Virus record (IMG/VR): IMGVR_UViG_2740892439_000009
Source of the DNA: a virus
Lineage: Duplodnaviria > Heunggongvirae > Uroviricota > Caudoviricetes
Length of the DNA stretch: 64,000 nucleotides
Direction: 5' to 3' (one strand)
The notes beneath the pieces are model-generated. The model worked only from the letters and a program-made list of their open reading frames with translations, ran no database searches and was not told the DNA's origin. Both the position numbers and the translations under genes were made by a program. Positions 1,660 to 53,641 of the stretch are shown here, in pieces; the first letter of the stretch is position 1; the number at the start of each line of letters is the position of its first letter.

Positions 1660-2492
1660 TGGCGCAGATCGACTCGTATCGTAGCGGTGAAGCTGTTTCC
1701 CTTTCATTTGCCTTCAACGTGCTGGATATCGAATCTGCTACCTACACAGTAAAGGACAGCACCGGGGCTATTCTCGTTGATGGCGAGCCGCTAGAAATTA
1801 CCAGCGGTCAAATGTCGATTCCGGTTGTTGTGTCGGCTGAATATAACCAGCTCTCTGAGAAAGAGCGAGATCTGCGGTACGTCATTGTGAAGGCTGTTGC
1901 ATCGGGCCTGACGCATGAAGAGCGTCAAATGTATGTTCTGCTGAATAGTTTTGAACTGTCGATACCAGAACAGTCGTTTGCAACTGTCGCTGATGCTCAA
2001 ATGCAGGCGATCGATATGCTGAATGGGGACACTTTGCTGTCGGATGGTGAAGGCTTAATGCGCAAGCGTCTCATTGAGGCTACCAGACGAATTAAAACTT
2101 TACCGTTCTCAATCCGCAAAATTCTACGTATCGACTTTGACCGATACGATCGCCCTCAAAATATGCTGAATGTGTATGACATTCCGTGGGGAGCAGATGG
2201 AGCGTACCGGCATGATTTAGTCGATTGGGAAAAGATGACGCAGGAGAAGTTTGAAGAGTTCCCTGACTACTTCAAAGAAGCGTTGATGCTTGCCGTTGTC
2301 AACGAAGCGTGTGAGATCGCAAATGGCAATGATGTAGCCGCAGCACGAGAGGATGGCATTTTGTCAGAGTCCATCGGTGAAACAACCAACATGTACCGTA
2401 CCGGTAAAGCTGCAAACGTGCATGTGGCTCGTAGTACCTGGCGCTTGCTGGTCAGTTACATCAACAACCGTATGATTGTTCGCCGTGCGTAA
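1659..2492 (+). CDS. Hypothetical head-module protein
   Basis: 277-aa ORF, start overlaps previous stop. Confidence 0.45.
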   Translation: MAQIDSYRSGEAVSLSFAFNVLDIESATYTVKDSTGAILVDGEPLEITSGQMSIPVVVSAEYNQLSEKERDLRYVIVKAVASGLTHEERQMYVLLNSFELSIPEQSFATVADAQMQAIDMLNGDTLLSDGEGLMRKRLIEATRRIKTLPFSIRKILRIDFDRYDRPQNMLNVYDIPWGADGAYRHDLVDWEKMTQEKFEEFPDYFKEALMLAVVNEACEIANGNDVAAAREDGILSESIGETTNMYRTGKAANVHVARSTWRLLVSYINNRMIVRRA

Positions 2493-2571
2493 CGCCAGTC
2501 GCATTATTTACTTTTGGTCTAAAGGGTTTTTGGCCAGTAATGAGAGCGACCGACAACAACAGGGAGAGAGC

Positions 2572-2916
2572 ATGAATATTTCATGGCAAACAGAAATTGC
2601 GATCTACCGCTTTGGCGCAAAGAACGTTTACGGTGAGGCGCAATTACAATTCGTCAGGAAGACGAATGTCGGCGTGGTTAAGTTCGAACAGAGTAATGAG
2701 AAATCGTCAGTTCGTGCTGATAGCTCTGGTAGTCGTGGTAAGGCGAGTCTGGAGCTGTTTGATGCTGTGTTAGTTGTCCCTTTAGAAGCGGCTGTACAAC
2801 TTGATGATGTACTGATCCTTGAAGGTCAAAAATTAAAGGTGTCCAGTGTTCATCGCCGCTGGGGGCTACGAGGAAGACCTGGGCATCTTGAAGTAGGGGC
2901 GAATATATGGGTCTGA
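2572..2916 (+). CDS. Putative head-tail joining protein (FII-like by position)
   Basis: ATG at 2572 preceded by AGGGAGAGAG; ORF track frame 2476..2916; synteny only. Confidence 0.4.
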   Translation: MNISWQTEIAIYRFGAKNVYGEAQLQFVRKTNVGVVKFEQSNEKSSVRADSSGSRGKASLELFDAVLVVPLEAAVQLDDVLILEGQKLKVSSVHRRWGLRGRPGHLEVGANIWV

Positions 2917-3380
2917 AATACGATGCGCATCAGTTCAAACGTGCGGGGAATAGACTCAACAACAGCCAGAAAGCATTTAAGCGATATCTTATTCGGGACA
3001 TGGAAAAGCTGGCGCGTTTGGTTGAGCGCCTCAGCCGTGCAATGGCCCCGCTGGAAACCGGATCTCTGGAGACAGCCATCTTTGCCAGGGTGATTAAAGA
3101 AGGTTATTCAGGGCTGCGCATTGAGCTTTCTGTGTCTGGAGCAAAACCACGTCAGGGGCATCCGGGCGTAGAAGTCGGTGACTATGCTAAGTACATGGAG
3201 CTGGGTAAATACCGACTCGGTTATCTTTCTCGAATGAAGAACGTGACAAACCCACCAATTGCCGGTGTTAAACCTCGTGTTGGGCCACACTTTCTGGAAA
3301 GAGCGGTGGAAATTAGCGAGAAGCAGTTCTCAGAAGCGATTCTTGAGGCTGCCAGAAAAGCCGGTTTTACGAGAGGTTAA
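2907..3380 (+). CDS. Putative tail completion protein (Z-like by position)
   Basis: 157-aa ORF overlapping neighbours; synteny only. Confidence 0.4.
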   Translation: MGLKYDAHQFKRAGNRLNNSQKAFKRYLIRDMEKLARLVERLSRAMAPLETGSLETAIFARVIKEGYSGLRIELSVSGAKPRQGHPGVEVGDYAKYMELGKYRLGYLSRMKNVTNPPIAGVKPRVGPHFLERAVEISEKQFSEAILEAARKAGFTRG

Positions 3381-3381
3381 T

Positions 3382-3765
3382 GTGTTTATTGAAGCGTTTG
3401 CAAGTTTGATGCAGAAGGCAAAGATTGGCACGGTCGGGACTGACATTTTCTGTCACTACTTGCCTGCCAATGTGAAATCTGGCGTCCTGCTTATTAACCC
3501 AAATACCGGCATCAGCATCGATCATGAGCTACAGGGCTTTTATCACGAATCATTCACAATCATTGTGCGTGGTTCGTCAATTACTACGACGGTTGAGAAA
3601 GCCAATAAAATCATTGAGATGTTTCCAGTAGAGGAAACGGAATCTGGTGGTGTGTATTTTCGACTTGTACGACCGATGGCGATGCCAATCATTTATCCCA
3701 AAAATGATGGGGCATTAATAGAAGCAGGCATTCCTGTTGAATTTGCTGGCTATTTATTGAATTAA
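3382..3765 (+). CDS. Putative tail terminator (U-like by position)
   Basis: GTG at 3382 after GAGAGG; same frame as ORF 3259..3765; size about 127 aa. Confidence 0.4.
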   Translation: MFIEAFASLMQKAKIGTVGTDIFCHYLPANVKSGVLLINPNTGISIDHELQGFYHESFTIIVRGSSITTTVEKANKIIEMFPVEETESGGVYFRLVRPMAMPIIYPKNDGALIEAGIPVEFAGYLLN

Positions 3766-3839: not shown

Positions 3840-4586
3840 ATGTCTAATACCCATGTAAAAAACATCAAACTTGGTGCCTGTAAGGTGTCGTTTGGTGGTG
3901 TGGATTTGGGTTACACCAAAGGTGGTGTTCAGGTTGAAATCGCAACCGAAACGCTGAAAGTGACCGTAGACCAGCTGGGCCAGACCACGATCTCCGAGCT
4001 GATCCAGGGCCGCAACATCACCATTACTGCGCCGCTGGCTGAATCCGTGTTGAAAAACATGGTCGATCTGATGCCAGGTTCCACGCTGAGTTCTGGCGAA
4101 GATACCGTAACCATCACGTCTGCGCAGGGAGTGAACCTGATCGACGTTGCGAAAGAGTTGGTGCTGACCCCGCAGGATGCGACGGATTATGTTCTGACCA
4201 TCCCTAAAGCAGCAACCGCGGGTAACTTCACCATGACCTACCAGTCTGACGACGTTCGCGTGTTCTCAGTTGAGTTTTCCGCTTACCCGGACGACGCTGG
4301 CGTGTTGGGGAAAATGAGCCTCCCAAAGCCGGTTGAGAGCGTCACGCTGACCCCGTCTTCACCGACCGTAAAAGTGGGCACTAAAGTTCAATTGAGCGCA
4401 ACCTTCACCCCGGCCGATGCAACCAATAAGACTGGCGTGTGGAGCTCTGATGCGACTGATAAAGCGACCGTAGATCAGAACGGACTGGTAACTGGTAAAG
4501 CTGTCGGTTCAGCCAATATCACCTTCACAACTAATGACGGTGCCAAGAAGGCGACCAAAGCCGTCTCTGTAACTGCCGCAAGCTAA
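3840..4586 (+). CDS. Major tail protein (lambda V-like) with C-terminal Ig-like domain
   Basis: ATG 3840 after AAAGGAG; C-terminal Big_2-like motif (VTLTPSSPTVKVGTKVQLSATFTPADATNKTGVWSS); position before chaperone and tape measure. Confidence 0.6.
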   Translation: MSNTHVKNIKLGACKVSFGGVDLGYTKGGVQVEIATETLKVTVDQLGQTTISELIQGRNITITAPLAESVLKNMVDLMPGSTLSSGEDTVTITSAQGVNLIDVAKELVLTPQDATDYVLTIPKAATAGNFTMTYQSDDVRVFSVEFSAYPDDAGVLGKMSLPKPVESVTLTPSSPTVKVGTKVQLSATFTPADATNKTGVWSSDATDKATVDQNGLVTGKAVGSANITFTTNDGAKKATKAVSVTAAS

Positions 4587-27439: not shown

Positions 27440-27587
27440 ACCCCAGACCGTGGGCGTACAATTCTGCGATGGGGCTAACCCTATCTACATCAGCAAGGAC
27501 GACGCCCTGACAGAAGAAACTGAGAGGGAAATCCTGATCCACAACACGCTGGGTGAGCGAATCTGTGATTGGGGGAAAGGTACATAA
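27360..27587 (+). CDS. Outer-membrane lipoprotein spanin (Rz1-like)
   Basis: Signal peptide with lipobox ISGC; starts inside the Rz-like gene in a different frame. Confidence 0.5.
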   Translation: MRRLMKSGLRMLLPFIASFAISGCVIKPQTVGVQFCDGANPIYISKDDALTEETEREILIHNTLGERICDWGKGT

Positions 27588-27598
27588 GGAACTGACGT

Positions 27599-27640
27599 AA
27601 GATGCGCTTGCGTTGATGTGAGGCGCATCTGTTTCTTCTA
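27599..27640 (+). terminator. Rho-independent terminator after lysis cassette
   Basis: AGATGCGC ... GCGCATCT stem followed by a T-rich tract. Confidence 0.55.
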
Positions 27641-27667
27641 TCTGTAATCGAGTAAATGCCGTCATCC

Positions 27668-27702
27668 AAGTTCACCGAACTTGATTATTCTTCACCGAAC
27701 TT
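27668..27702. promoter_or_regulatory. Direct repeat TTCACCGAACTT x2, first copy within palindrome AAGTTCaccGAACTT
   Basis: Copies at 27671-27682 and 27691-27702, about 130 bp upstream of ORF 27831. Confidence 0.35.
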
Positions 27703-27830
27703 CACTCAAGGTAATCTTGAATCATCCTGCTTAATGATGTAGATTTAACCAACAGCTGACGATGTCGTCAGCCGTTAGACCTGAAAAGGTGCCGCAATGA
27801 CATTCAATTGTTAACGGCTAAGGTGGAAAC

Positions 27831-28223
27831 ATGCACAACGCACTGAACGCATCCCGTTCTATACAAACGATCCGTGATTGCACGAGCGTTATTGAGACTC
27901 ATGTGCTGGCTCAGCACAAGATTGAAGTCCGTAAGCTCAACAATGACGCGGTTGATCTAAAAGACACTCGCTTCATCATCACCTTTAAAAATGATGTTGA
28001 GAAGCCGTGTGCCAGCGTAAAGCCGTTAGCGGAAGCAATCTTCCTGAACGGACGTGTACGTTTTGTCGTAAAACCTGATAAGCAATACCCTGAATTTTTG
28101 CGTCATTTAAAAGAGTTTTCTGAGGTGATAGAACATTCTATTCGTCGCTTCGTACTTGGTCATGGTAGCATTAGTAGTCATGTAAAGGCTGATAGATCTG
28201 CTACCAAATGGCTCCTACACTAG
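27831..28223 (+). CDS. Hypothetical protein (accessory gene)
   Basis: 130-aa ORF; 16-nt overlap with the next ORF. Confidence 0.4.
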   Translation: MHNALNASRSIQTIRDCTSVIETHVLAQHKIEVRKLNNDAVDLKDTRFIITFKNDVEKPCASVKPLAEAIFLNGRVRFVVKPDKQYPEFLRHLKEFSEVIEHSIRRFVLGHGSISSHVKADRSATKWLLH

Positions 28224-28960
28224 ATAGCTCATACTCTAAAGATCTTAGCGAGTTTCCTCATAAAGGGGAGACTCTTGTATCTCGTTTCGGTTACATAATC
28301 AACGAAGCCTCTCTCTTCAAAATTTCTGAAATCACCATTGTTGATCCCGAAGATGATATAGTTTTGTACACCCGGATAGAACGGGTTGGTGCGCTTGATC
28401 AGGATCAGTTGATGGAGTTCATCTTGGACAAGGCTGATGACGATATTCCTGAAGAGGATATCATCAGAGAACTTCTTCGCTCCGGTATAATCGATGAAAG
28501 CAAAAATTCTATAGTAGGCAGAATTGCCTTGCGAGAATACAGCTTCGTTGAAGATGGAAATGAGGTTGAATGCTACCAAGTGGCAGGTGTTGAGACTGTG
28601 AAAGCTATTCGTCAGAGAGGGCTGTGCCATCGCACATACCTGTTCTTGCTTCACTGGTACGAACATCTAGTTTGTGACGATATGCAGACAATCCCTGGTG
28701 CTAAGATCTGGGCAGGGCCTCTCATGCGAACCGGCGATGTGCGTATATACAATGCCAAAACAGAAACGTTCGAGGATGTGTTAGGTGAGTACGGGATGGG
28801 GAAAGAAACCGGATTTTTGCCGTGGAACAGAGGATTGTTGCTTGATGCAGAGTTAAGCTCTTGGCTCCCAAACAAAGTGCAAGTTAACGTTCAGAAATTT
28901 ATCGTACTTATCATCTCCCGCAAAACAAGAACTCCAGTAGGTTTATACCTAAAAGATTAA
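28208..28960 (+). CDS. Hypothetical protein (accessory gene)
   Basis: 250-aa ORF, acidic; followed by terminator. Confidence 0.45.
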   Translation: MAPTLDSSYSKDLSEFPHKGETLVSRFGYIINEASLFKISEITIVDPEDDIVLYTRIERVGALDQDQLMEFILDKADDDIPEEDIIRELLRSGIIDESKNSIVGRIALREYSFVEDGNEVECYQVAGVETVKAIRQRGLCHRTYLFLLHWYEHLVCDDMQTIPGAKIWAGPLMRTGDVRIYNAKTETFEDVLGEYGMGKETGFLPWNRGLLLDAELSSWLPNKVQVNVQKFIVLIISRKTRTPVGLYLKD

Positions 28961-28965
28961 AAATA

Positions 28966-28989
28966 AGGCGACTTTGGTCGCCTTTTTTG
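28966..28989 (+). terminator. Rho-independent terminator
   Basis: GGCGAC ttt GGTCGCC followed by TTTTTT. Confidence 0.6.
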
Positions 28990-29136
28990 TTAACAGCCAT
29001 TGATTCTCGCCTAAAAATTCTAAGGCAGCACCTACCATTTAACCTTTACACCACAGCCGTAGGCATTTAGGCTATATCACATATAAGAAAACAAGTTGTT
29101 TCAGACGATAATTATATACGCAAAGGGAACTCTCCA

Positions 29137-29805
29137 ATGACCAAGATCTTTGTGGTTGGCGGCACAAAGGGCGGGCCTGGCAAATCCACCGTTGCCCAGC
29201 AAATTGCCGTTTGCCTGAAAGTCAAAAAGAAGAAGAAGGTTTATATCACCGATATAGATATTCAGCGCACGACAACGAGCTGGTGTGAAGACCGTCGACA
29301 GAACGAAGACCTTGAGCTGATTCCTTTTGCATACGTTCAGGATGACATCATTAAGCACCTAAAATCGCTTCAGGGTAGAGCTGAGTTTGTAGTGGTAGAT
29401 GCTGGTGGCTTCGACTCCGAAATTCAGCGACAAGCGATGCTGATGGCTGACGTTATCATTATCCCGCTGCGTCCTAAGCGTCGTGATTTGAAATCTTTAC
29501 GTGACATCGATCCTATTATCGACAATGTTCGCAATGTAAACGATAAAGTGAAGGTCCGCGCGGTCATGAACCAGTGCCCGGCTTTGCCATCACAAGTGTC
29601 TCGCATTCTGGCGGCTAAAGAGATTGTCGAGACGTTTGGCATCGAGTCTGCGCCAGTCAATCTATATAACCGCAACGTCTACGATGATGCGGAAGAGTCT
29701 GGTCGTTCTATCTTCGAAATGACCGGTAGCGAGCGCGACAAAAAGGCGGAAGCCGAGTTTGAAGAATTTGTAGATTATCTGTTGAGTCTGGAGGAAGAAG
29801 AATAA
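29137..29805 (+). CDS. parA: ParA-family partition ATPase (small type)
   Basis: Deviant Walker A GGTKGGPGKST; 222 aa. Confidence 0.75.
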   Translation: MTKIFVVGGTKGGPGKSTVAQQIAVCLKVKKKKKVYITDIDIQRTTTSWCEDRRQNEDLELIPFAYVQDDIIKHLKSLQGRAEFVVVDAGGFDSEIQRQAMLMADVIIIPLRPKRRDLKSLRDIDPIIDNVRNVNDKVKVRAVMNQCPALPSQVSRILAAKEIVETFGIESAPVNLYNRNVYDDAEESGRSIFEMTGSERDKKAEAEFEEFVDYLLSLEEEE

Positions 29806-30164
29806 TGTCCATGAAAATGGGTGACCTAGCAAAGCGCAAAGAGCCTGATGCACCGGCTAAGAACACAACTCCTTTGCGCCAACCAGTCAGACCACAAGGA
29901 CGCCCGACTCGTGGCAAAGAGAAAATTAAAAGCCGCACCATGTCACTGGAAGACGAATACTTCGAGCTTCTGGAAATGATGAAGTTTATCCCTCGTTTCG
30001 AGAAGTTCACCCGCTCTGATGTGATTCGTGCTGCTATTTTCCATCTGGCAGAGAAGTCGCCGCAGGAAATCGAGGATATCGTGAAACTTAACGAGGCGAT
30101 CACTGCTGCCGACGTCACGATGCGTACCGATGAAATCAAACGCGAGTTGATGAAGAAAGGTTAA
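29805..30164 (+). CDS. Putative centromere-binding partner of ParA (ParG-like)
   Basis: 119-aa basic N-terminus, start overlaps parA stop. Confidence 0.45.
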   Translation: MSMKMGDLAKRKEPDAPAKNTTPLRQPVRPQGRPTRGKEKIKSRTMSLEDEYFELLEMMKFIPRFEKFTRSDVIRAAIFHLAEKSPQEIEDIVKLNEAITAADVTMRTDEIKRELMKKG

Positions 30165-30208
30165 TTTTATTGAGGTGCTGCTTGGCACCTCTTTCTATAG
30201 GTTCCCTA

Positions 30209-30928
30209 ATGCTCTACAAATATATTGGAAGTGAAGATTCGCAAAAAGTGTTACGTAACCTCAAACGGTTTGTAGAGGACGGCACTATCTCTGCTAGCGC
30301 ACCTTCTTCATTCAACGACCCATCAGAGTTCAAAGTTTCGATAACGATGGGAGGTACAGAAGTGGAGCGCCGGAAACACTTTGAAGACAATGGATGTAAG
30401 GATTTTTCCTTTGAAGACTGGGATGCTGTAGCTCCTGAAGCTGCAAAATCGTTGGCTGTGGATTTGCGGAAAGAATCATTAGGGGCTTTTGGTGTGGTGT
30501 GCTTGTCACCAAACGAAGATAACATCTTGATGTGGTCACATTACTCAGTGTCGCATAAAGGTTTCTGCATAGGCTTTGATGATGATTTTGTTACCTCTAT
30601 TGAGGGGTATCACAGCTTTGATAATGTGAAATATATACCTTCTGTTCCCGTGTTCGATGAAGTTACAGATGAGTTTAAGGTACTTTTTGATAAGCTCTTT
30701 TTCTACAAGCACGAATGCTGGAAATATGAGGAAGAACAAAGGGTTATTACTAAAAAAATAGGCGCTCAGGCATTTGATAAGAAATATATTAGAGAGATCA
30801 TTCTTGGACATAACGTTTCTCCTGAAGTAGAAGAATATGCCCGGACACAGCTAGACACGAGCATCGAGGTTTACAAAATGAGTACACCTGATGATGGTTA
30901 TCTTCTTGTCAAAGAAAAGCTGAAGTAG
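30209..30928 (+). CDS. DUF2971-family protein
   Basis: SFNDPSEF and LMWSHYSVSHKGFCIGFDDDF motifs; AT-rich gene. Confidence 0.6.
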   Translation: MLYKYIGSEDSQKVLRNLKRFVEDGTISASAPSSFNDPSEFKVSITMGGTEVERRKHFEDNGCKDFSFEDWDAVAPEAAKSLAVDLRKESLGAFGVVCLSPNEDNILMWSHYSVSHKGFCIGFDDDFVTSIEGYHSFDNVKYIPSVPVFDEVTDEFKVLFDKLFFYKHECWKYEEEQRVITKKIGAQAFDKKYIREIILGHNVSPEVEEYARTQLDTSIEVYKMSTPDDGYLLVKEKLK

Positions 30929-30994
30929 CTCCAGACTTTCCTCAAATGATTATGTTGGGCGCTTTTCTTATTGAACTGGTTAGTGAGGCTAATA

Positions 30995-32167
30995 ATGGAT
31001 TTGTTCTCAACCAAAATAGCAAAAAACAAGCTGCACGAATCTTTTAAACAGATTTATCAAGATAATACATATGCTCCAGTAAGAGAAGTGATACAGTCGT
31101 GGGGGCGTGGGTTACTGGAGCGTAGCGGTGAGCAGACTAAATTCGTTAAAGAGTTTCAGACAACCTTCAATTCCGCCTTATGGGAATTGTATCTGAACGA
31201 AATGTTTATTCGTCTCGATTATTCTGTCGACTACACAAAAGACAGTCCCGATTTCTGTGTTACTACACCGTCAGGCTACCAGTTTAACGTCGAAGCTGTG
31301 ATATCAGATCGGCCACATAATCCACCTGCAGGTGCTCTTTTTAGCGAATCAAAATTCAAACATCAATCAACGCTAAAATTAATCGGAAAAATCAAAGACA
31401 AACATGATCTTTTTACAGGAGTTAATGGCAAAAAATTCCCGTACTCTACGATGTCTCATGTAGTTAATAAGCCGTTTGTTCTGGCGCTTGCACCCTTTGA
31501 CTCCGATTTATCATTGTCTCAAAATAACACAATCATCAATCGAGTGTTGTTTGGCATTGAGGAACCTACCACCAGAAATTTGGTGACTGGCAGCCAAACT
31601 AAAGTTACCTCAATCAAAAAGAATGAAGACGTTGAAATTCCATTAGGTATATTTACTAACGACTCATATAAAGAAATAAGTGCGGTTATTTTCTCCACCA
31701 CCGGCACTTTTGGAAAAGCCGTGGTTCAAAGCGGTATCGGTAGATATGTAAGGTCAACACGATATCGAGCCATTGATGTGAATGATTTCATCGCCAATGA
31801 AGGGATGAAAAACGAGGGAAAGCACACACAAAGGATAGGACCTGATCATTTCATCACTACATATCGGCATTTTTTAAATAACGAAGTCACTGGTGCGGAT
31901 ATTGTAGTTTGCCATTCCACTGCTCATGAAGAGACGCACTTTGACGGCCTTCATATTTACTACAATCCTTTTGCGACAGTGCCACTGGACAGAAATATTT
32001 TCTTCCCCCCAGAGATAACTCATAATTTTTACGATATGGAAAAAGAACAGTCTGTTCAGAATCATCCTGATGGAGCGCTGGTATCTAGACAGGTTTTTGA
32101 ACCAACTAGAGCACATTTTAGGTATATCATGAAACATTGGTTTCCAGGCTTTCTAAAAGATGTTTAA
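30995..32167 (+). CDS. Hypothetical protein downstream of the DUF2971 gene
   Basis: ATG 30995 after TGAGG; AT-rich; no recognisable motif. Confidence 0.45.
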   Translation: MDLFSTKIAKNKLHESFKQIYQDNTYAPVREVIQSWGRGLLERSGEQTKFVKEFQTTFNSALWELYLNEMFIRLDYSVDYTKDSPDFCVTTPSGYQFNVEAVISDRPHNPPAGALFSESKFKHQSTLKLIGKIKDKHDLFTGVNGKKFPYSTMSHVVNKPFVLALAPFDSDLSLSQNNTIINRVLFGIEEPTTRNLVTGSQTKVTSIKKNEDVEIPLGIFTNDSYKEISAVIFSTTGTFGKAVVQSGIGRYVRSTRYRAIDVNDFIANEGMKNEGKHTQRIGPDHFITTYRHFLNNEVTGADIVVCHSTAHEETHFDGLHIYYNPFATVPLDRNIFFPPEITHNFYDMEKEQSVQNHPDGALVSRQVFEPTRAHFRYIMKHWFPGFLKDV

Positions 32168-40068: not shown

Positions 40069-40143
40069 GATGGTGTAGCTCAGCGGTAGAGCAGTTGGCT
40101 GTTAACCAACTGGTCGGTGGTTCGAATCCACCCACCATCGCCA
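40069..40143 (+). tRNA. tRNA-Asn (anticodon GTT)
   Basis: Acceptor GATGGTG/CACCATC, D-arm GCTC..GAGC, anticodon loop CTGTTAA, T-loop TTCGAAT, encoded CCA. Confidence 0.8.
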
Positions 40144-40148
40144 ATTTA

Positions 40149-40235
40149 GGGGAGTTAGTCCGTAGAGGTAGCGGTGTAGACTGTAAATCTACTGTCATTG
40201 CGACTCGGGTGGTTCGACTCCATCACTCCCCACCA
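40149..40235 (+). tRNA. tRNA-Tyr (anticodon GTA), long variable arm
   Basis: Acceptor GGGGAGT/ACTCCCC, anticodon arm GTAGA-CTGTAAA-TCTAC, T-loop TTCGACT, CCA. Confidence 0.75.
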
Positions 40236-40239
40236 AATT

Positions 40240-40315
40240 GCCGGTTTAGCTCAGTTGGTAGAGCGCTGCCTTGTAAGCAGGATGTCAGCGGTTCGAGTCC
40301 GCTAACCGGCACCAA
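40240..40315 (+). tRNA. tRNA-Thr (anticodon TGT)
   Basis: Acceptor GCCGGTT/AACCGGC, D-arm GCTCAGTTGGTAGAGC, loop CTTGTAA, T-arm AGCGG-TTCGAGT-CCGCT, CCA. Confidence 0.7.
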
Positions 40316-52826: not shown

Positions 52827-53096
52827 GAATTATGGCGCTTGTTGAGGAAGTCACTCCTCTTACGCACTTTGTTTTGCCATGCCGGCAGTTAGCTTCTGCC
52901 TTTGACTATTCATGCGGCAACCCCGCATTTCGCCACAATGGGCAATTCACTTTTATGGAATAAACTGGCCGTTGTGTCGATTTAATTAGCATGGCCTTAC
53001 CATGCTAATTTATTCAACTTGTACAATCCTACAAATCTATCCACTCAGGCTTACACCGTCTTCGTTATTGTAGAAATGAGGATCATCAGCGTTGAA

Positions 53097-53312
53097 TCAG
53101 CTTAGAGCAACGACATTTGCTGCTGCTGGGCCTTTAGCCCCATTCTCGATAGAGAATTCGACCTGCTGGCCTTCTTCCAAAGTGCGGAAATTATTACTCT
53201 GAATTGCCGAAAAATGTACAAAAACATCTTTACTGCCATCAGCAGGAGAAATAAAGCCAAAGCCTTTATCAGAGTTAAACCATTTTACTAAACCAGTCAT
53301 TTTATTAGACAT
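53097..53312 (-). CDS. Cold-shock protein (CspA family)
   Basis: [23 protein letters not shown]...VFVHFSAI closely parallels E. coli CspA. Confidence 0.85.
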
Positions 53313-53641
53313 AGATATTACCTTCTTAATTTTGTGAGCCACATAGTGCGGCGAGAATTTGATCTGTATAGATTGGGACTTACTTAGGCACTTAAGGAGG
53401 AGACTCACGAAGAAGGGAAATCAGAAGATAACACTGAACTGAGACTGCTTTACTAAAACTGCTTACATAAGGTCTGTCTTGCAAACCAACGATGCTATTA
53501 ACGCATACCCCTTCTTTTCATGCAACCTTTATTTTTCAAAGATAACTAATTTTTGTCACCATTGGTTTAGTAAACGTTAACGAACCAGACGATGCCAGAC
53601 ACCTTTACAGAGAACAGATGCCCGCCAATTGGCGGGCATCA

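Follow-up and report, generated by a model that had tools for sequence, protein, structure and literature searches.

A swappable two-gene accessory cassette of an SSU5-like phage-plasmid encodes a predicted GNAT-like protein and a small upstream partner

Type II toxin-antitoxin systems of the GNAT/ribbon-helix-helix (RHH) kind, such as TacAT, KacAT, AtaRT and ItaRT, are bicistronic and co-transcribed, with the small gene first and the two genes overlapping or adjacent. Their toxins, of ~160–180 aa, match Acetyltransf Pfam models, and the systems are carried patchily by plasmids and prophages. Phage-plasmid P1 carries phd-doc, a small autonomous operon close to maintenance functions that is dispensable for phage growth and acts by post-segregational killing. 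Prophage morons have their own promoter and terminator and a GC content below that of their neighbours, lie between functional modules, and are present or absent among siblings. Here we describe a locus with likenesses to each of these: two overlapping open reading frames (ORFs), ORF1 and ORF2, in a 64,000-nucleotide stretch of Caudoviricetes DNA, hereafter the window (IMG/VR record IMGVR_UViG_2740892439_000009). Over the region described here, the DNA is 100% identical to that of Escherichia coli plasmid pSCMY1. Because phages SSU5 (SSU5_031/032) and PhiR41_1 and Klebsiella phage vB_KpnS_p4727 also have both genes in the slot between Rz1 and parA, we identify the window as an SSU5-like phage-plasmid, of which the region is an autonomous two-gene accessory cassette, or moron.

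The pair shares with GNAT/RHH systems its gene order and overlapping, bicistronic arrangement, kept in distant relatives, a GNAT likeness predicted for its second gene product, and a patchy distribution on plasmids and prophages; moreover, a TacA/TacT-type pair fills the identical slot in sibling phage-plasmids. Two defining features of that family are absent, however: ORF1 has no TacA/DUF1778 or RHH domain, and ORF2, at 250 aa, has no Pfam match. We therefore did not file the pair in the TacAT family, although by analogy it may work like a TacAT-type system. The cassette also differs in having a structured RNA leader and no recognisable protein operator. It shares with phd-doc its autonomy, small size, dispensability and place near maintenance functions on a phage-plasmid, but neither gene is related to phd or doc in sequence or fold. 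Unlike the random cargo of a moron slot, alternative alleles of one module are exchanged here precisely, from the conserved leader to the parA operator.

We propose, as the simplest functional reading, that ORF1/ORF2 may be a conflict module resembling GNAT-type toxin-antitoxin systems and used for addiction, abortive infection or both, a reading to which we assign a probability of about 45%. It is suggested by the conservation of a small upstream partner beside a GNAT-like protein, by a slot occupancy mutually exclusive with TacAT, by extreme allelic diversity, and by orphan copies of ORF1 on a competing phage-plasmid family. The cassette is also dispensable and, in E. coli, confined to plasmids (the window-type allele is in 70 of 5426 complete genomes, plasmid-borne every time), and two defence genes, PD-T7-5 and PDC-S31, follow shortly after the par locus. 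From these features we infer toxicity, neutralisation, a target and a biological role as follows. A weak sigma-70 promoter would give an mRNA that begins with an ~80-nt folded leader and a strong Shine-Dalgarno sequence, carries ORF1 and the coupled ORF2, and ends at the terminator. The ORF2 product would modify an essential cell component, and ORF1, its cognate small partner, would bind and neutralise it. When the plasmid is lost, or an infecting phage perturbs the system, ORF2 would be freed, which would stabilise the plasmid prophage and/or abort the infection.

The features of the cassette are collected in Table 1. ORF1 and ORF2 are real genes, since both belong to PHROG families of unknown function (matches to phrog_2594, E=1e-41, and phrog_3307, E=2e-90) and both are under purifying selection (dN/dS 0.09–0.23 versus relatives). 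Their lengths and 16-nt overlap (28208–28223) agree with the initial annotation, and the ORF2 start codon lies 13 nt ahead of the ORF1 stop codon, making translational coupling likely. Upstream is a lysis cassette of holin, endolysin and Rz/Rz1 genes (PHROG matches); the Rz1-like spanin gene stops at 27587 and is followed by a terminator-like hairpin (a terminator scan gave the variants 27609–27627 and 27615–27629) and then by the pair, which thus does lie directly after the lysis terminator as first described. The description of the pair as AT-rich holds in direction, with a cassette GC of 43.4% below the 47.4% of the window and the 52.2% of the lysis genes, but the difference is modest. Neither gene has a match in Pfam, NCBIfam or PADLOC, and the PADLOC-DB 2.0 defence hidden Markov models (HMMs) matched neither the window pair nor four other alleles or relatives. 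Matches in PLSDB comprised 141 plasmids of ~100–120 kb, nearly all non-mobilizable, of which 77 were from Klebsiella, 60 from Escherichia and a few from Salmonella, Shigella or Enterobacter. A scan of genome contigs gave 4 loci only.

Table 1. Positions in the window of the cassette, its flanking signals and the exchanged segment
Feature	Coordinates	Strand	Details
Terminator-like hairpin	~27601..27639	+	GATGCGC...GCGCATC with T-rich tail TGTTTCTTCT; after Rz1-like spanin gene; ends lysis cassette
TTCAC-repeat region	27667..27705	+	12–50 nt upstream of -35 element
Putative sigma-70 promoter	27717..27745	+	TTGAAT (27717–27722), 17-nt spacer, TAGATT (27740–27745)
Structured 5' leader	27752..27830	+	P1 27755–27772; P3 27779–27790; P4 27791–27818
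ORF1	27831..28223	+	130 aa, ATG start
ORF2	28208..28960	+	250 aa, ATG start
Intrinsic terminator-like hairpin	28965..28990	+	AAGGCGAC-TTTG-GTCGCCTT then TTTTTT; 8 pairs, 5 GC; found on both strands; ends cassette transcript
Allelic swap unit	27835..29029	+	No similarity to L086/L088; flanks near-identical

Fold search, transitive homology, and secondary structure with motif together point to ORF2 as a divergent GNAT-like protein, which we stop short of filing as a member of the superfamily and which would presumably be an acetyl-CoA-dependent acyltransferase. In a Foldseek search of the PDB with an AlphaFold model of ORF2 (predicted local distance difference test score, pLDDT, 69.5; residues 20–158 good), nearly all of the top 50 matches were GNATs, at weak scores (best E 6.7e-3, probability up to 0.97), among them Naa10, AAC(2')-Ia, YlbP and the toxins AtaT, KacT and TacT. 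The ORF2 family is small, with 46 representatives at E up to 1e-3 in a search among 1.84 billion proteins. The family profile matched residues 171–260 of the 1429-aa protein P0090 (E 1e-8; hhalign 93.7%, E 2e-7), whose residues 162–257 are Pfam Acetyltransf_1 (38.4 bits against a cut-off of 20.7 bits). No direct Pfam link was found for the family: the relative P0073 has a sub-threshold GNAT match (E 0.007), and a third homologue search with a broad profile gave no Pfam-annotated relative. The predicted order of beta4, an xxxGxx loop (RQRGLC), alpha3, beta5 (LVCD), alpha4 and beta6 fits the core of the GNAT fold (beta1-alpha1-alpha2-beta2-4-alpha3-beta5-alpha4-beta6), and RQRGLC (residues 134–139) is the candidate counterpart of GNAT motif A (Q/R-x-x-G-x-G/A), the acetyl-CoA pyrophosphate loop between beta4 and alpha3. 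Close relatives keep the first glycine of this loop in at least 90% of cases, whereas the sequence is GLG, GAG or GSG in divergent alleles and a few family members have lost the glycines altogether. The family is further marked by the signature L(V/I)(C/S)DxxQTxxGxxLWA, by the invariant residues P3, Q124, Y144, D157, Q160, W168 and W206, and by conserved extensions at both termini. The N-terminal M-A-P (28208–28216), which includes P3, is kept even in distant homologues such as that of L092, where ORF2 does not overlap ORF1; its conservation is thus more than a by-product of the overlap.

To judge from distant homologues, the association of the two genes is old. ORF2 homologues at 24–30% identity have an ORF1 homologue directly upstream, adjacent or overlapping, and two of these upstream genes compared with ORF1 gave hhalign probabilities of 99.4% and 96.8%. 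The distant pairs lie in a phage region with Arc/Ant/Bro (L092), on short contigs beside a HEPN gene (L093–96), and next to the integrase at a prophage end (L100); in lambdoid PhiR12 phages the pair adjoins int. ORF1 itself is modelled (pLDDT 73.9) as an alpha/beta core with a long C-terminal helix and a disordered tail, and its N-terminal motif RSIQTIRDCT includes a nearly invariant RSIQTIRD; faint matches to HAT1 and 'NAT_SF' (E ~0.08–0.5) were not trusted. ORF1 is also found without ORF2, at 36 loci of D6-like (P1-type) phage-plasmids, beside hot, humD and phd-doc, and 4 of the 36 have two ORF1 copies of different allele classes. Such copies are as expected, by analogy, of antitoxin-like 'anti-addiction' genes. 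In L045, the two orphans (3341–3733 on the minus strand and 4001–4351 on the plus strand) are divergently transcribed and of different allele classes, an arrangement also seen in L044, L049 and L051. One D6-like orphan lies between hot and humD, where P1 has lxr; we discarded the idea that ORF1 is P1 Lxr, as tblastn with this copy did not recover P1.

Comparison of siblings showed that the slot between Rz1 and parA behaves as a recombination (swap) hot spot. DNA identity between the window and L086/L088 is 99.55% up to position 27834 and 97.4% from 29030 onward, with none across the intervening swap unit, and while their Rz1 and ParA proteins are 100% identical, ORF1 and ORF2 share 30% and 33% with those of the window. 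There are at least four allele classes (window, SSU5, PhiR41_1 and L086), with pairwise identities of 30–61% for ORF1 and 28–36% for ORF2; classes at ~30–45% identity within near-identical backbones are typical of conflict genes. The right boundary of the swap is the start of a conserved region upstream of parA, ACCTACCATTTAACC, common to every slot type. This segment of ~105 bp (29030–29136), the right homology arm of swaps, hardly varies whatever the slot contains, even where it is empty, and is probably the site of the par promoter/operator or of the centromere. The left homology arm is the leader, and L086 is recombinant inside the P4 loop. Recombination has also occurred between the two genes, as ORF1 is nucleotide-identical in the window and Klebsiella plasmid L005 while synonymous sites in ORF2 are saturated.

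We took a census of the slot in an unbiased, ParA-anchored sample of 80 IMG/VR loci, with redundant loci included and not dereplicated. A TacA/TacT-type pair occupied 42 of these loci and ORF1/ORF2 30 (allele classes of 14, 6, 5 and 5), the two never together (0 of 80); other genes, such as a 403-aa or a 183-aa ORF, were found in 5, two were empty (~160 bp holding the terminator and the parA promoter) and one was truncated. The TacA/TacT pair is that annotated as CYRAN_26/27 in phage Cyrano and matches TacA1 (PF08681, E 8e-26) and GNAT models in Pfam; it is reported to be transcribed 35–60-fold over background in Cyrano lysogens (PMC9928086). The commonest replacement of the cassette is thus a GNAT toxin-antitoxin pair with no sequence similarity to ORF1/ORF2 detectable in our comparisons. 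Since siblings have the slot empty (L168, L172) or filled with unrelated genes, the cassette is dispensable and replaceable, which bears out the earlier suggestion of accessory cargo. The initial annotation had set against that suggestion the case of genes conserved and essential across relatives with repeats that are not conserved; the genes do recur here in many relatives and the repeat is unconserved, but the genes are replaceable and dispensable. Among the other occupants, the 403-aa protein (2100–3311, minus strand, in L148, and probably also in L150 and L153) has a C-terminal R-x4-H motif (RSKLVHG) reminiscent of HEPN nucleases, and no Pfam or PADLOC match apart from a faint NTF-like one.

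The same distribution bears on whether the pair could be a housekeeping accessory of plasmid maintenance or lysogeny control, such as a partition, copy-number or lysis-lysogeny modulator. The pair does adjoin parA and the conserved operator region and is present in many SSU5-like elements (the 141 PLSDB plasmids), but the slot is empty or otherwise occupied in siblings, integrative phages lacking a par locus carry the module too, and its extreme allelic divergence is unlike that of housekeeping genes. We regard this role as very improbable.

Alternatively, there would be no addiction or suicide logic. ORF2 would then be a non-toxic modifying enzyme that acetylates a component of the host or of a rival element, in anti-defence, superinfection exclusion or lysogenic conversion, with ORF1 as its adaptor, its specificity subunit or an independent inhibitor. 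The ORF2 signature, as LVSDxxQTxxGxxLWA, and the beta4–beta6 core recur in the giant phage or conjugative-element proteins P0090, P0104, P0110 and P0112, where, unlike in ORF2, they form a single domain within 1400–1500 aa alongside a ParB-like nuclease, DUF6934 and other GNAT domains, with no ORF1 partner. This architecture, which resembles that of the 'polyvalent proteins' of phages and conjugative elements, favours the non-toxic enzyme, as do the moron positions of the pair (integrase-adjacent in PhiR12 and L100, near Arc/Ant/Bro in L092) and the occurrence of ORF1 alone in D6-like elements; strong allelic diversification would also fit an arms race with the target. However, the most frequent occupant of the slot is a bona fide toxin-antitoxin pair, and a gene so strictly accompanied by a small, overlapping one upstream is more often part of an effector-plus-neutraliser system. 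Anti-defence families were unmatched as well, though in libraries not built for finding them. We consider a non-toxic enzyme unlikely. The probability beyond this reading and the conflict module falls to maintenance roles or other functions.

Several observations nonetheless weigh against a toxin-antitoxin-like conflict module. The most conserved part of ORF2, at the C-terminus, is poorly modelled, its motif-A glycines are conserved only in part, and the family alignments give no assignable catalytic residues. Searches of PDB sequences with narrow and broad ORF2 profiles gave no meaningful match, and similarity of ORF2 to the Cyrano TacT-like toxin was not significant (hhalign probability 0.4%). 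ORF2 is ~80 residues longer than known GNAT toxins, and the GNAT fold is also found in non-toxic enzymes. For ORF1, there were no significant structural neighbours in the PDB or BFVD and no RHH, helix-turn-helix or TacA-like domain in Pfam or NCBIfam (hhalign against Cyrano TacA, 0.2%), and its orphan copies could equally mean that it has an independent function. Toxin, antitoxin and defence HMMs gave zero matches across all alleles examined. Finally, the slot counts include redundant loci, and a shared position does not prove a shared function, because some occupants of the hot spot are unrelated to toxin-antitoxin systems.

The cassette had been credited with its own regulation, and it does have a promoter-like element, a leader and a terminator; the direct repeat then put forward as its main signal is limited to one lineage and does not exceed chance expectation, and the conserved non-coding features are instead the promoter and the structured leader. 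The putative promoter matches 8 of 12 consensus positions, which falls below the threshold of the promoter scan and explains why the scan missed it. Across 21 distinct upstream sequences, its TTG and GTAGATT are nearly invariant in position within unalignable surroundings. The leader that follows is predicted to fold with a minimum free energy of -28.2 kcal/mol (z = -3.25), and its series of hairpins recurs in 26 relatives. P1 varies in sequence with its pairing always kept; P2, which most relatives have, has been lost by deletion from the window type; and P4 consists of an outer GCCG/CGGC stem and an inner one (27798–27802 paired with 27809–27813) and abuts the invariant CGGCTAAGGTGGAAACATG. 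The Shine-Dalgarno sequence AAGGTGG lies at 27820–27826. In L029 (~3874–4003), the P4 segment of the leader, ~60 nt, is tandemly duplicated.

A covariance model of P3 and P4 (R1) matched the window at 27770–27833 with 70.9 bits. It gave one match in each of 27 sources with a cassette of the window's kind, and none in TacAT, empty or other slots nor in D6-like, PhiR12 or distant loci. In the covariance-model alignment, 7 of 14 pairs are changed on both sides and pairing holds in 85% of cells, a share that drops to 48% or less when the partners are slid, figures that lean toward the structure used for fitting; none of 500 shuffles reached the observed covariation score. This alignment was needed because RNAalifold on a plain MAFFT alignment, which recovered the invariant GCCG/CGGC stem only, had the hairpins out of register. 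The leader had no match at the gathering threshold in Rfam 15 (positions 27600–27900 of the window) and nothing relevant at E up to 10 (L006). It resembles Rfam cis-regulatory 5' leaders in having several covarying hairpins directly upstream of a Shine-Dalgarno sequence but matches none of their families, and we regard it as a candidate for a new RNA element, supported by covariation. We recognised no motif in it for binding a ligand or a protein, and neither an antisense partner nor a second copy was found within the window. Since the leader is shared by alleles with ~70% protein difference, whatever reads it must be common to the backbone or host and not allele-specific. Three other explanations for parts of this region were discarded: a leader peptide (a 12-codon ORF, 27762–27800) is by inspection not conserved in relatives; relatives have unrelated palindromes in place of a LexA box in P1 (CTG-N10-CAG), also by inspection; and P1 is not the operator of an allele-specific ORF1, as the window and L086 have the same P1 with different alleles.

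Alternatively, the leader could be conserved without an RNA function, kept as a homology arm for allele exchange or with its hairpins acting as DNA. The left swap breakpoint (27834) lies inside or just after the leader, the L086 recombinant falls in the P4 loop, and the pair counts derive from a model-fitted alignment of related sequences, all of which would fit. Yet P3 stays paired through sequence change (ACCU/AGGU, CCCC/GGGG, UCUCC/GGAGA), as does the inner P4 stem (GACA/UGUU, AACA/UGUU, GACA/UGUC), and the G-U pairs occur on the plus strand only. Pairing falls in the slid controls as given above, the folding z-score is low, and the surrounding intergenic sequence is otherwise unalignable. 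We therefore think it distinctly unlikely that the leader has no RNA function.

The direct repeat itself is present exactly as first reported. TTCACCGAACTT occurs in exactly two exact copies, 27671–27682 and 27691–27702 (20 nt from start to start, 32 bp overall), the first enclosed by the palindrome cAAGTTCaccGAACTTg at 27667–27683, and a third TTCAC lies at 27701–27705. No other exact 12-mer in the window recurs within 40 nt, and the rest of the window shows no enrichment of the motif. As one or more such pairs arise in 12% of shuffles at local composition (mean 0.165 per window), the repeat is real but not significant alone. Only the window/Klebsiella lineage has the exact pair; the arrangement in E. 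coli lineages is a looser TTCAC-N15-TTCAC, whose proximal copy stands 11 nt away from the -35 element. In the comparison of 21 upstream regions, the TTCAC repeat was absent from SSU5, PhiR41_1 and Pantoea/Erwinia-type relatives.

These repeats might still be an operator through which a dedicated transcription factor, probably one of the host, controls the cassette. Shortly before the -35 element, TTCAC recurs at multiples of 10 nt (27671, 27691, 27701); in the L006, L021 and L011 lineages, the TTCAC/TTCAT nearest that element is fixed 11 nt from it and has a second copy 20 nt upstream; and both 12-mers are intact in Klebsiella plasmids despite a base change between them. The pattern presumably resembles the direct-repeat sites of OmpR/PhoB-type response regulators, among them TTCACnnnnnnTTCAC, the 'cre tag' of CreB, and CTGTTCATAT, the TorR box. 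On the other hand, the repeats are absent from cassettes of SSU5, PhiR41_1, Kluyvera/Buttiauxella and Pantoea/Erwinia type, which retain promoter and leader; their spacing varies by lineage (10 and 30 nt versus 20 nt) and misfits that of CreB; and the shuffles and the lack of additional copies in the window speak against them. We judge such an operator to be rather unlikely.

Beyond parA, a 119-aa gene (29805–30164, plus strand) matched only PHROG 5111, of unknown function, and, faintly, the RHH-like aCcr1 (E 2e-4). Its Cyrano counterpart (L101, 29975–30334) is annotated as a 'RelE/ParE putative toxin', which looks doubtful because the position and size of the gene fit a small ParB/ParG-type partner of ParA. 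After this parA/parB-like pair come DUF2971/PADLOC PDC-S31 (30170–30928, plus strand; E 4e-38) and PD-T7-5 (30971–32167, plus strand; E 1.5e-139), which served as positive controls for the PADLOC scan. With a GC of ~39–40%, these genes form a second variable islet, since pSCMY1, otherwise identical upstream, has a different, minus-strand gene there. Elsewhere in the window, three tandem tRNA genes (Rfam) lie at 40069–40311 on the plus strand, at a place equivalent to that of tRNA-Asn/Thr/Ser in phage Cyrano. A full-length match to the Rfam cspA thermoregulator (RF01766, 185.7 bits; 53072–53490, minus strand) implies a cold-shock-protein gene with its 5' untranslated region on the phage-plasmid.

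A bolder form of the conflict-module proposal would join these observations. The long, divergent GNAT effector and its non-RHH partner of new fold would constitute a new toxin-antitoxin or abortive-infection family, its specificity alleles would be interchangeable, with the leader RNA as a new cis-regulatory element on one side of the swap and the parA operator on the other, and the P1/D6-like orphan copies of ORF1 would be anti-addiction genes acting between co-resident phage-plasmids. We offer this tentatively, as a somewhat unlikely combination. SSU5-like phage-plasmids are frequent in clinical Klebsiella, E. coli, Shigella and Salmonella, and the locus bears on how their lineages are retained and how they affect incoming phages. 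One slot, defined to the base, that holds a classical GNAT toxin-antitoxin pair, one of at least four very divergent alleles of a GNAT-like pair, or nothing is a natural experiment. Should the pair prove to be a toxin-antitoxin or defence module, its antitoxin fold would be new and its effectors would form a new GNAT branch; allele exchange, and possibly cross-neutralisation between phage-plasmid families, could then be followed in a tractable case.

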